Positions 17,183-23,800 of a DNA stretch of 64,000 nucleotides are shown here, piece by piece. The DNA comes from an uncultured candidate division WWE3 bacterium (GTDB lineage: Bacteria; Patescibacteriota; WWE3; UBA101185; UBA10185): the NCBI GenBank assembly GCA_963765125.1, contig CAVXUZ010000005.1, forward strand, positions 361,441 through 425,440, written 5' to 3'. The notes beneath the pieces are model-generated. The model did not search any database. It worked only from the letters and a program-made list of their open reading frames with translations, and was not told the DNA's origin. The position numbers and the translations under genes were made by a program. Within the stretch, counting starts at the first letter, position 1; each line of letters opens with the position of its first letter.

Positions 17183-20100
17183 TTAATCCAATTTTGCATT
17201 TTCTCCTGTTGGAATGAGCTTTCCGATTATAACATTCTCTTTCAAACCAAGCAAGTGATCGACTCTACCAGAGGCAGCTGCGTCGGTCAACACGTTACTC
17301 GTTTGAATAAATGAAGCCGCTGCAAGGAAACTATCGCTTACTAATGATGATTTTGTGATACCGAGTAGGTGTAATTCTGCAACTGCTGGCTCTCCACCCT
17401 CTGCGATTACCTTTTCGTTTTCTTCAATAAATGTATCTTTTGATACTTTTTCATCCAGTAAGAATTCTGTGTCACCGCTCTCTAGAACTTTAACATTTCT
17501 AAACATCTGTTTAACAATAACCTCAATGTGTTTGTCGTTTAAGTTAACACCCTGAGAAGCGTAGACCTGTTGAATTTCGTTGATAATGTATTTCTGTGTT
17601 TCTCTTACACCAACGGCACTGAGTAGGTCTCTAAGGTCAAGGTGGCCTGTTGTGAGTTTTTGACCTTTTTTAACTATCGGCATTTTCCTCAACGATAATT
17701 TCAGAAACTGGGTCGATTCCATACTCTGTGATGCTCTCTTGATCATCAACCTGTTTCTCCCATAACGAGAATCTTTCTTTCATCGCCTGATTTGTATACT
17801 CTGGCTATTCCATCTGTTTCTGACATAACAGCTTGGAATTTTGGTGTTCTTGCTTCAACAAGTTCTTCAACTCTTGGCAAACCTTGAGTAATATCTTTTC
17901 CAGCGATACCACCTGTGTGGAATGTTCTCATTGTAAGCTGTGTACCAGGCTCACCAATGGACTGAGCTGCTGCAACACCAACTGCTGCGCCTATTCTTAC
18001 GTCTTTTCCTGTCATGAGATCGTGACCGTAACATTTCTTACAGATACCTCTTTTAGTTTCACAGATAGTGGTGATCTAATAAGTATTGTTTCTAAATCTG
18101 AGCTTTCAATTTCTTTAAGTACATCTTCTGTGAGCATCTCTCCGGCTTTTGCAATTACTTTACCTTTAGATTTTGCATCTTCTGCTAAGTATCTACCCTT
18201 TACTCTGTTTACAAATGTTTGTAGCATTGTTCCTTCACCAACCACCATAATTCTCCCATTTTCAGTACCACAGTCATCTTCTCTAACAATAACTTCTTGA
18301 GAAACATCAACCAATCTTCTTGTTAAATATCCTGCATCTGCAGTCTTAAGACCTTTATCAACTAATCCTTTTCTTGCACCTCTTGCTCCAACAAAGTATT
18401 CCAAACCTGAAAGTCCTGTTTTGTAATTACCAAGTAATGGAAGTAGAACTGTCTTACCTGTAGGATCGGCAACCAAACCTTTAATACCTGCGATTTGGTT
18501 AACTTGGCTTCTTGAAGCTCTTGTAGAACCAGATTTAACAAGTACTTTTACTGGGTTTATGTCTGAAAGATTACTCCAAACACTCTCACTTATTTCATCA
18601 ACAACCTTATACCAAGCGTCTTCTGTTAAACGGACAACCTCTTGTGCTGTAATAAGACCTCTTCTGAAGTTTTTATCGATTTCAATAACCGCTTTTCTAC
18701 CTTTTTCAACAATTTCTTTTGTTTCTTTAGGTACTGAGATATCTGAAAGTGAAACTGATTGACCTGACAAGGTTCCGTATTTTAATCCAAGATCTTTTAG
18801 GTCGTCAATGAGTTTTACAACAATTGCCTGATCTTCGTGACTAAACGCTCGTGATAACAAAGCTGTAACGCTTTTTCTTGTCCATAGATTCGTTGATATA
18901 TTCAAATGTTCTTTGGCATGTAGTCGTTGAAGATTACTCTTCCTGGTGTAGTTTCTAACAAAGTATCACCAACACGAACTTTTACAAGTTGTCTGAGGTC
19001 TGACACTTTTTAATACATCGATAGCAAACATCAGTTCATTTACATCACTGTAGATTCTTTCATCTGGCTTGTAAGCTTCATCAACCGTAGTCATGAAGTA
19101 AACACCAAACAACATAATTTTTGTTGGAATAGACATCGGTGACCCGTTTGATGGGTTTAAGCAAATTGTTTGTTGAAATCATACATATCTTTTGCTTCTT
19201 GAATTGCTGCGTCTGTAAAGTGGAACGTGTACAGCCATTTGGTCTCCGTCAAAATCTGCGTTAAATCCTGAACAAACACAGAGGTGAAGTCTTATTGCAT
19301 TACCTTCGATTAATTTTGGATAAAAAGCTTGTATACCTAATCTCCAAAGTGTAGGAGCACGGTTTAATAAAACTGGGTGGCCGTTAACAACTTATTCTAA
19401 AATATCCCATACTTCTGGACTTCTTTGTTCTAAGTAATATTTTGCACTTTTTACATTTGGTGCATAACCTCTTGATAAAACTTCTCTTAGAACCAGTGGT
19501 TTAAATAGCTCAAGAGCCATTTCTTTTGGAAGACCACATTCATCAAGTTTTAAGTTTTGGTCCGTTAATAATAACTGCTCTTCCTGAGTAATCGACTCTT
19601 TTTCCAAGTAAGTTCAGTCTAAATGTTCCCTGCTTTCCTTTTATCATGTCGGCAAGTGATCTTAGTTCTTTTCTTCCTCGTGTAACTCTTGCCTTATTTC
19701 TTTGTTTTGAAGAATCAAACAATGCATCTACGGATTCTTGCAACATTCTTTTTTCGTTTCTGACAATTATTTCAGGAGCACCAAGGTCGAGTAATCTTCT
19801 TAAGTCTGTTATTTCTGTTGATAACTCTTCTGTATAAATCATTTAAATCTGATGTTGCAAATCTTCCACCCTCAAGTTGGACCATAGGTCTTAGGTCGGG
19901 AGGTATTACTGGTAAAACATCCAAAACCATGTTGCTGGGAGGAATTCCTGCTCTTCTAAATTGCTCAATAACTTTAAGTCTTTTTGCAATTTTTAGAGCT
20001 TTTTGGCCTTTTGCTGATTGTAAATCCTGCCTAAGTGACTCTGAGAGTTCATTTAAATCAAGTTTTGCTAAGATTCCTTGAATTGCCTCTGCTCCAATTT

Positions 20101-20866: not shown

Positions 20867-23800
20867 TTCGCTTCCTCCTCTGAACTTTCTACGTCTTCTT
20901 CCGCGACTTCGTCAGACTCATCTTCTAATAGCTCTTTTTTCTCTTCTTCTACGGGCTCAGCTGGGACAACAATTACTTCTTCTGGCTCGTCTTTAGCTGT
21001 TTCATCTGATGTTAATGCCTCAATACCAATTCCCAAACCGTTTAACTGTCTGACCAGTAGTTTAAATGTTTCAGGTACTGTTGATTCTGGAATTTCTCTT
21101 CCTTGGACTATTGCGCTGTATGCTTGTGTTCTTCCAACCATATCGTCTGATTTTATAGTTAACATTTCGTTCAAAATATGTGCTGCACCATATGCTTCTA
21201 ATGCCCAAACTTCCATTTCTCCAAATCTTTGTCCACCAAATTGTGCTTTACCGCCTAAAGGCTGTTGTGTAATTAATGAGTAAGGTCCTGTAGATCTTGC
21301 GTGCATCTTCTCTTCACTCATATGAACAAGCTTTAAGATATAAACTTCACCAACAACAATTTCTGCTGCAAAATACTCACCAGTCCTACCATCTCTTAAT
21401 CTCATCTTTCCTGATTCTGGGAGTCCTGCTTCTATTAAGTTCTTTTGTAATATTTTCTTCAGGAATACTTTGTAACAAGGGTACTTCATACTTCTTACCT
21501 AAGCTTTTTCCTGCCATACCTAAAGGAGCCTCTAGAATTTGTCCAACATTCATTCTTTTTAAAACTGCCTCTGATGAGAAAACAATGTCGACTGATCTTC
21601 CATCTGGCAATACCGGCATATCTACTTCTGGGAACTATAGCTGAAATAACACCTTTGTTACCGTGTCTTCCAGCCAACTTGTCACCGATCTCAATTTTCT
21701 TAAGCTGAGCAACATATACTGGTGATTTCTTCAATCGTTCCTGCTGGTAAATCTTCGTTTTCTTCCTTAGTAACTCTTTTTACACCAATAACAACACCGT
21801 GCTGTCCATGAGGCATATAAAGTGAGTTGTCTCTGACGTCTTTAGCTTTTTCTCCAAAGATAGCTCTTAAGAGTCTTTCTTCTGCCGATAATTCAGCCTC
21901 ACCTTTTGGTGCTACTTTTCCAACCAAAATATCTCCAGAATGTACTTTTGAACCTATTGTGACTATACCTTCGTCATCGAGATTTCTTAGTGACTCTTCT
22001 GAAACATTTGGAATATCGCGTGTAATTTCTTCTGGGCCTAATTTTGTTTCTAAAACTGGTATTGTGTGGTCAGTAATATGAATTGATGAGAGCGTGTCGT
22101 CTTTTACTAATCTGTCAGAAATAACGATACCGTCTTCAAATTCGTATCCTTCCCAGATCATGTAGGCTGCGGTAATGTTTGTACCGATAGCTAAGTCGCC
22201 CTCTGCTGCAGATGGTCCTTCAATTAAAACATCACCCTTTTTAATTTTATCTCCGGTTTGGACTCTTACATATTGGTTAAAACAGGTCTTGGTGTTTGAT
22301 TGTTGAAATTTTGTTGCTATGTAAGTAGCTTTACCGTCTTTATTATATTTAACTTCAACCTTGTTAGCGTCAGCGTAAATAACCTCACCTGCGTCAGATG
22401 CGAAGGTTACTGCGTTTGAATTTGCAGCGATATCGCGCTCAATACCAGTACCGACAATTGGTGACTGTGGTGTAACCAGGGGTACTGATTGAGACATCTG
22501 TTGAGTTCCCATAAGTGCTCTAGAGACGTCATTATTTTGTAAAAAGGGAATTAATCCAGCACTGATACCCACGATTTGGCTTGGTGTAACCTCAATGTAC
22601 TCTGCGTGTGAAGCATCACCCAATATAAAATTTCCGCCTTTTCTTAAAGGAATTTGACTTTCTAAGATCACTCCGTTTTCGTCTGTTTTAATAGATGCGT
22701 CTGTAATGAAAACGTTCTCTTCTTCATAAGCTGCAAGATAAACTATCTCGTCACTAATTTTTGGTTTGCCGTCTTTTGTCTTTTCAAGTTTTATATATGG
22801 TGTTTCTAAAAATCCATAGGAGTTTACTTTTGCATACATTGAAAGGTAGTTGATAAGACCGATGTTTGGACCTTCAGGAGTTCTGACAGGACAAACTCTA
22901 CCAAATGATGAATAGTGCACATCTCTAACCGCCATGCTTGCTCTCTCTTTTGTTAATCCACCTGGGCCTAAAACTGAAAGTCTTCTTAAGTGGTCTAATG
23001 AGGTCAAAGGATTCTGTTGATCTTGGAATTGTGAAAGTTGACCAGTTGCAAAAAAACTATGAACACTTGCTGCCACGGCTCTTGGAGAAATTAAAACTCC
23101 TGGCATGGGGAGTTCGTCTCTAGATTGCATTGTCATTCTCTCTTTAATATTTTTCTCCATTCTTAAAAAGCCGATTCTCATTTGCCACTGCAATAACTCA
23201 CCAACTCTTTTTACTCTTCTGTTTGCAAGATTATCTATGTCGCTAATGTTTCCAACACCATTATTTAGTTCAATAATTTTCTTTACGATAGATACGAGGT
23301 CTTCTAGTTGTAATATTCTGTACTTTGGTTCGTTAGGAAAGTCTAATCCAAGCTCTTGATTAAGCTTAAATCTTCCAACTTCACCCATACTATATCTTCT
23401 TTCATTAAAGAAAAGTGCGTCAACGTATTCCTTTGCATTTTCAAGCACTAAAGGCTCACCTGGTCTTTGTTTTCTATAAACCTCTAAACAAGCCTCGTCG
23501 TATCCTGATGCTGGATCTTTCGATAATGTGCTCTCGATATAATTGATTTCTGGGTTTGATTCTACATCCTCAAATGCGTCTCTAATCTGGTCATCGGTTT
23601 CAAATCCAAATAATCTTAATAGTGTGGTGATGGTCATTTTTCTTTTTCGGTCAATTTTTACGTTTATAACTCCACCTCTGGATGTTTCGATTTCTAACCA
23701 GGCACCATTTTTTGGTAATACTTTTGCTGAAGCTAAAAATTGACCTGAAACGGGTGAAACTTCTCCACTGAACAATACACCCTCAGATCTGATAAGTTGA

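Follow-up and report, generated by a model that had tools for sequence, protein, structure and literature searches.

Single-base lesions in rpoB and rpoC of a candidate division WWE3 contig as probable errors of the deposited consensus

The rpoBC Locus and Its Lesions

The window analyzed here, meaning the whole 64-kb stretch of DNA presented above, belongs to a contig that measures at least 482 kb (CAVXUZ010000005.1). It comes from an uncultured bacterium of the Patescibacteria whose nearest genomes are those of candidate division WWE3. Its minus strand carries rpoB (20863–24174) and rpoC (17183–20866), which encode the RNA polymerase subunits beta and beta′ and are interrupted by frameshifts that are, in all likelihood, errors of the deposited consensus. 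rpoB starts at about 24174 and ends with a stop codon at 20863–20865; its first ~818 codons are intact and are followed by three shifts of +1 nt in the 3′ end. rpoC starts at 20866, has its stop codon at 17183–17185, and contains 11 frameshifts, ten of +1 nt and one of −1 nt, as well as one in-frame TAA. The two genes meet in a junction (20863–20880) that can be read directly from the sequence, where the ATG of rpoC overlaps the TGA of rpoB (ATGA, 20866–20863) and the sequence GAGGAGG (20880–20874) lies 8 nt upstream of the rpoC start. Both the ribosome-binding site and the stop/start overlap had been pointed out in a first reading of the window, termed the original prediction below.

Intact beta and beta′ sequences of four relatives (L001, L002, L004, and L081) were aligned with the window DNA by frameshift-aware dynamic programming, and the lesion count was identical with all four references. 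In total, 15 lesions are distributed between 21720 and 17675; a base is added in 13 of them and missing in another, and one is an in-frame stop. The closely spaced shifts among them are not alignment noise, because the short segments between them match the relatives well. At most sites the exact extra base is unassignable, as several single deletions restore an equally good protein.

All three rpoB lesions consist of one extra base, found in ATCACC[a]GTA (21717–21723, ~21720), in GTT[c]CCAGAA (21629–21635, ~21632), and in GAACTTAATAGAA (21430–21439, ~21436). In rpoC, the series begins with one extra base in AGACTTAAGAAGATTA (19798–19804, ~19801), within the conserved sequence NRLK|RLLDLG, and another in GGACCAAAACTTAAA (19554–19557, ~19556; INGP|NLKL). 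The in-frame TAA is located at 19392–19394, where L001 has D (WDILE*VVNGHP), and corresponds either to one substitution or to a tight insertion/deletion pair. Directly past the catalytic segment, one extra base lies in CCACTT[t]ACA (19214–19220, ~19217). It is followed by single extra bases in GATATG[t]ATGATT (19180–19186, ~19183), where extension of a homopolymer is impossible, in AATTTG[c]TTAAACCC (19155–19161, ~19160; STNNL|LNPS), in GTCAGACCTCAGA (18998–19001, ~19000), in AAGAAC[a]TTTGAA (18904–18910, ~18907), and in GACAAG[a]AAAAGC (18870–18876, ~18874), the only site beside a run of five. The only deletion is one missing base in CCACTATC-TGTGAA (18064–18070, ~18066; RSPL[S]CETKR). Two further extra bases, in ATGGGAGAAACAGGT (17751–17757, ~17755) and in GAAAATGCCGATAGTT (17675–17681, ~17678), complete the series.

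The original prediction had described the 3′ end of rpoB and all of rpoC as shattered by more than ten disruptions, which slightly understates the 15 lesions, and had counted at least seven shifts in rpoC, where 11 and a stop are present. Its proposal to enumerate the indels with an intact beta and beta′ yields 14 shifts and the stop. The rpoB shifts that it had placed at about 21700, 21620, and 21490 are in fact the ends of open reading frame (ORF) fragments, the lesions being located at ~21720, 21632, and 21433–21439. The interval that it had assigned to the damage, 17746–21740, contains the other lesions, and the last shift falls 65–70 nt beyond its start. The catalytic segment that it had read within 18905–19392, a stretch free of ORF fragments, was recovered at ~19265–19224.

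Repaired Proteins and Selection

With the lesions repaired, beta comprises 1102 aa and beta′ 1224 aa. In relatives, beta measures 1102–1118 aa, and beta′ is encoded by one gene of 1222–1240 aa in the close ones. The closest relative, L081, is a contig of a metagenome-assembled genome (MAG; GCA_964590955.1, CAZPYT010000007.1; its beta′ is also listed as P0243) in which rpoB (1111 aa) and rpoC (1224 aa) are both intact. Repaired beta′ has exactly the length of the L081 protein and is 82.5% identical to it at 100% coverage, and repaired beta is 83.7% identical to that of L081 and 74% identical to that of L001 (tblastn and frameshift-aware alignment). All catalytic motifs are kept in the repaired products. 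Near-invariant columns, defined as at least 97% conserved in an alignment with 69 relatives, provide a measure of constraint. Repaired beta′ deviates at 2 of 228 such columns, both times conservatively, which equals the median of the relatives themselves, and repaired beta deviates at 4 of 300, within the range of the relatives. With so few departures, the rpoBC sequence retains the full signature of purifying selection.

These observations bear on the possibility that rpoB and rpoC are genuine pseudogenes, either as a dead rpoBC copy or as part of a decaying or non-viable lineage, in which case an active copy would be located elsewhere in the genome. In favor of this, the public record itself contains the disrupted ORFs, the analysis covered only 64 kb of the contig, and a recognizable gene with several frameshifts and an early stop resembles decay pseudogenes such as those of recently host-restricted bacteria. 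Unlike in such genes, there is no signal of relaxed selection here, the genes are essential and lie in a canonical operon, and the near-invariant residues show no excess of change. By our own estimate, 14 neutrally gathered indels should be accompanied by substitutions on the order of a hundred; a load of this kind is excluded, and a handful of substitution errors, perhaps including the TAA, may be present. The indels also have the wrong spectrum, since all of them are 1 nt long and 13 of the 14 are insertions. In bacterial pseudogenes, by contrast, deletions prevail and indels vary widely in size, as Mira, Ochman and Moran reportedly found in 2001.

Gene order argues in the same direction. 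The genes lepB-rpoB-rpoC-rpsL-rpsG-fusA-tuf follow one another in canonical syntenic order, identical to that of L081, where RsmB, a TPR protein, signal peptidase, rpoB, rpoC, rpsL, rpsG, fusA, tuf, and rpsJ succeed one another as in the window. Upstream of rpoB lies an intact lepB for signal peptidase I (24284–24880, minus strand; Pfam Peptidase_S26, E = 2e-43, full profile coverage), a placement that also matches L081. The downstream genes (12880–17177, minus strand), namely rpsL (16764–17177), rpsG (16292–16759), fusA (14143–16227), and tuf (12880–14058), are intact as well, and their products S12, S7, EF-G, and EF-Tu (137, 155, 694, and 392 aa) have exactly the lengths of their L081 counterparts, as does S10. 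No second rpoB or rpoC was found in the window, and the 120 best database matches to repaired beta′ included no further beta′ of the 482,252-bp contig. Taken together, decay is an improbable explanation of the lesions.

Clustering and Sequence Context of the Lesions

All 15 lesions lie within 4.04 kb of ~58 kb of coding DNA, which corresponds to an approximate scan-statistic P of ~1e-15. They form three patches (21720–21433, 19804–18870, and 18070–17675) separated by clean gaps of 1.6 kb and 0.8 kb, so that the error rate is ~0.4% across the span and ~1% within the patches. In the other ~60 kb, outside 17.2–21.7 kb, ORF tiling is dense and regular, and no gene-disrupting lesions were detected in the ~54 kb of coding DNA located there. 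Each of the 14 frame changes involves a single base, and the excess of insertions (13/14) departs from a 50:50 expectation with a binomial P of ~0.002.

Homopolymer runs account for little of this pattern. At two sites, 21433 and 19183, no acceptable correction takes a base from a run. The span contains 30 runs of at least 5 nt, of which a single one, the A5 at 18876, falls on a lesion, where it is one among several equally acceptable corrections. The lesions had been described as not restricted to homopolymers, and this description proves correct. When all k-mers were considered, no shared motif remained at the lesion sites after correction for multiple testing. CTTAA, the highest-ranking 5-mer, occurs at 4 of the 13 insertion sites (max-statistic P 0.21), and 7 of the 11 CTTAA sequences in the span are free of lesions. 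At the four sites concerned (21439, 19804, 19554, and 19161, read on the coding strand), C, T, or A can be removed with Leu kept, and the P value for this k-mer taken singly is 0.001. The overlap could be a hint of context-dependent base-calling error; a methylation-linked systematic error or a slippery-site motif was rejected, as CTTAA is not significant once corrected.

The sequence context also bears on the idea of programmed recoding, in which the DNA of the organism would truly contain the extra bases and full-length beta and beta′ would be produced by +1 ribosomal frameshifting (even without a motif), by transcriptional slippage, or by removal of bases at the RNA level. A shared +1 direction, found in 13 of the shifts, is formally what a uniform mechanism needs, and a +1 frame change in an essential gene is known from prfB, which encodes release factor 2 (RF2), and from slippage rescue in endosymbionts. 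However, in those cases each gene has a single site, which lies in a conserved slippery/stop context or a long poly(A) and is shared among relatives, and none of these features is present here. Apart from the missing motif, the lesion sites have no stop or rare codon at a constant spacing and none of the long A/T runs required for slippage, and the relatives are free of shifts at all of the lesion positions. Furthermore, a +1 mechanism could not fix the one −1 shift and the one TAA. To our knowledge, multi-site recoding of this kind is unprecedented in bacteria, and it is regarded as very improbable here.

Relatives and the Integrity of rpoC

Each of the 80 representative genomes that were fetched has rpoC in one continuous frame (80/80). 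Apparent frame changes in three of them, L003 (~11067), L027 (~7840), and L065 (~12145), coincide with short runs of N, which represent either gaps in the scaffolds or masked sequence, and were set aside. The N run of L003 falls at NRLK|RLLDLG, the same position as the window lesion at ~19800.

A naturally split RNA polymerase encoded by several small subunit genes, as in cyanobacterial rpoC1/rpoC2 or the split subunits of archaea, can be dismissed almost entirely: 4-nt overlaps of the ATGA type do occur at the fragment boundaries 18015/18012 and 17749/17746, and cyanobacterial beta′ likewise derives from more than one ORF, but rpoC1 and rpoC2 are two complete, lineage-conserved ORFs with their own starts, whereas the 12 breaks found here leave fragments that fail to tile the protein, borders inside conserved blocks, conserved segments of 7–24 residues in frames without a usable start, and a stretch (18905–19392) without any ORF longer than 56 aa, and the close relatives carry rpoC as one unsplit gene. 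Widespread natural splitting of rpoC in the Patescibacteria had been suggested by database queries with beta′ fragments and was refuted by the 80 loci and by a full-length query. The fragment queries listed only partial proteins of up to 640 aa and omitted equally identical full-length relatives, which the full-length query returned; lists of matches to short protein fragments are therefore not to be taken as evidence for split genes. An alternative genetic code was considered as well, as reassignment of stop codons occurs in some relatives within the Patescibacteria, and was rejected: rpoC contains a single in-frame TAA, and every other gene is open under code 11.

Consensus Errors as the Most Probable Explanation

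The rpoB and rpoC frameshifts are best explained as errors of the deposited consensus that are absent from the DNA of the organism, with a probability of roughly 0.88, and the disruptions are not a real biological feature. This explanation is favored because the lesions involve single bases only, are biased toward insertions, come without a load of substitutions, and give proteins of exact length on repair, and because the genes are intact in all relatives and the damage is tightly clustered in a clean contig. The genome itself would almost certainly possess an ordinary intact rpoB (~1102 codons) and rpoC (1224 codons), presumably translationally coupled through the ATGA overlap. In the public MAG contig, which is otherwise clean, the lesions would then mark three short patches of low accuracy in which nearly all errors are single-base insertions. 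Because their profile is dominated by insertions, independent of homopolymers, and confined to patches, it suggests a low-coverage or unpolished long-read consensus, or one produced by gap filling, inside a well-polished assembly. The original prediction had favored a local problem of consensus quality over decay, and the unremarkable repaired proteins, the intact relatives, and the lack of a visible second copy bear it out.

Indels that fragment genes are documented for long-read-derived consensus sequences (PMC12007338, PMC9262707). The indel errors of long-read, hybrid, or gap-filled assemblies, which are the target of length checks of the IDEEL type and of tools such as Kastor (PMC12007338), resemble the present case in that single-base events break conserved genes into neighboring pieces that align in order to one intact homologue. 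As here, no substitution load accompanies them. They differ in distribution, as the errors described here occupy three patches within 4 kb, are biased toward insertions, and show no concentration in long homopolymers.

Another possible technical cause is mis-polishing in a mixed population. Cross-mapping of related strains is expected in conserved stretches, so that the position of the lesions relative to protein conservation bears on it. The lesions favor neither conserved nor variable protein regions (P = 0.25/0.75), and this test lends mis-polishing no support. Collapsed strain heterogeneity, which the original prediction had also named, is neither supported nor excluded as the cause.

Independent sequence for the locus is scarce. 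Exact look-ups of EF-Tu, S7, EF-G, LepB, and the deposited fragments P0001 and P0200 returned no record, and S12 alone was matched, by a Logan contig of 2011 bp from run ERR12035938. Neither a relative nor a contig of the same species was retrieved from JGI metagenomes when the variable beta′ insertion served as the query, and the protein database yielded none of the same species either, its best match being 82% identical. A literature search on run ERR12035938 and on rpoBC frameshifts in MAGs of the Patescibacteria retrieved nothing relevant. The Logan contig provides partly independent evidence. The S12 that it encodes is identical to that of the window, and the spacings between rpoC, rpsL, rpsG, and fusA are the same (5, 4, and 64 nt). 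Its 3′ ORF of rpoC stays open over at least 250 codons, as opposed to 188 in the window, and is therefore without the shifts at ~17681 and ~17754.

Several points weigh against the explanation by consensus errors. The S7 of the Logan contig differs from that of the window, and the contig, which was compared by ORFs and proteins rather than by DNA, may represent a close relative or strain rather than the same genome. The patches occur only in rpoBC and spare the equally conserved tuf and fusA, which this explanation does not account for. Moreover, the error profile names no platform: consensus errors of nanopore sequencing are typically homopolymer deletions, which is not the pattern observed here. 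Finally, that reads would fail to support the extra bases is an inference, and the technical causes named above are put forward with the same reserve.

Consequences for Annotation and Genome Comparison

The significance of these lesions is a matter of data hygiene and annotation quality rather than of biology. Misannotation by automated pipelines had been anticipated and has already occurred: public protein collections contain three of the ORF fragments, P0001 (364 aa), P0121 (297 aa), and P0200 (187 aa), as separate proteins of the 482,252-bp contig, which is held by NCBI and ENA. rpoB and rpoC are standard markers of phylogeny and completeness, and a genome in which they are present in at least ten pieces risks being mis-scored or misplaced. 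Likewise, a pseudogene count or an analysis of gene loss in a lineage with reduced genomes would falsely score a loss of RNA polymerase. An otherwise clean MAG contig can thus conceal short patches of far lower accuracy, and a frameshift-aware alignment to a relative combined with the test of near-invariant residues suffices to separate artefact from decay.

The Remaining Window

The original prediction had held that the genes flanking rpoBC are intact, and the remaining window, with an intact ribosomal protein operon, agrees with it. In addition to the tidy ORF tiling and the protein lengths shared with L081, suspicious adjacent ORFs on the same strand match different Pfam families. The gene for L3 (11948–12412, minus strand, 154 aa) was rejected as a further frameshift, since L3 is short in WWE3 relatives too (~141–156 aa, L002 and L004), and its length looks like a lineage trait rather than a truncation. 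The sole large gap in the ORF tiling (30200–30789, 588 nt) is occupied by an ORF of 217 aa that overlaps its neighbor and was tentatively read, from its sequence without a family search, as a sigma-70-family protein.

The window spans the str, S10, spc, and alpha ribosomal operons. ARAGORN detected no tRNA genes in the 64 kb, and no match to an Rfam family attained the gathering score there. At 49092–49313 and 49314–49604 on the minus strand, two small ORFs of hydrophobic sequence (96 and 73 aa) share one frame and are directly adjacent, with one stop codon between them. No convincing Pfam match was obtained for either, and the pair could represent a single gene interrupted by an in-frame stop or two separate genes for small membrane proteins. 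On the plus strand, an ORF at 49593–50594 resembles RF2, judged by eye from the SPF and GGQ motifs in its translation. In many bacteria, prfB contains a programmed +1 frameshift; the N-terminus of this ORF is contiguous in one frame, and the gene thus appears to be without it.

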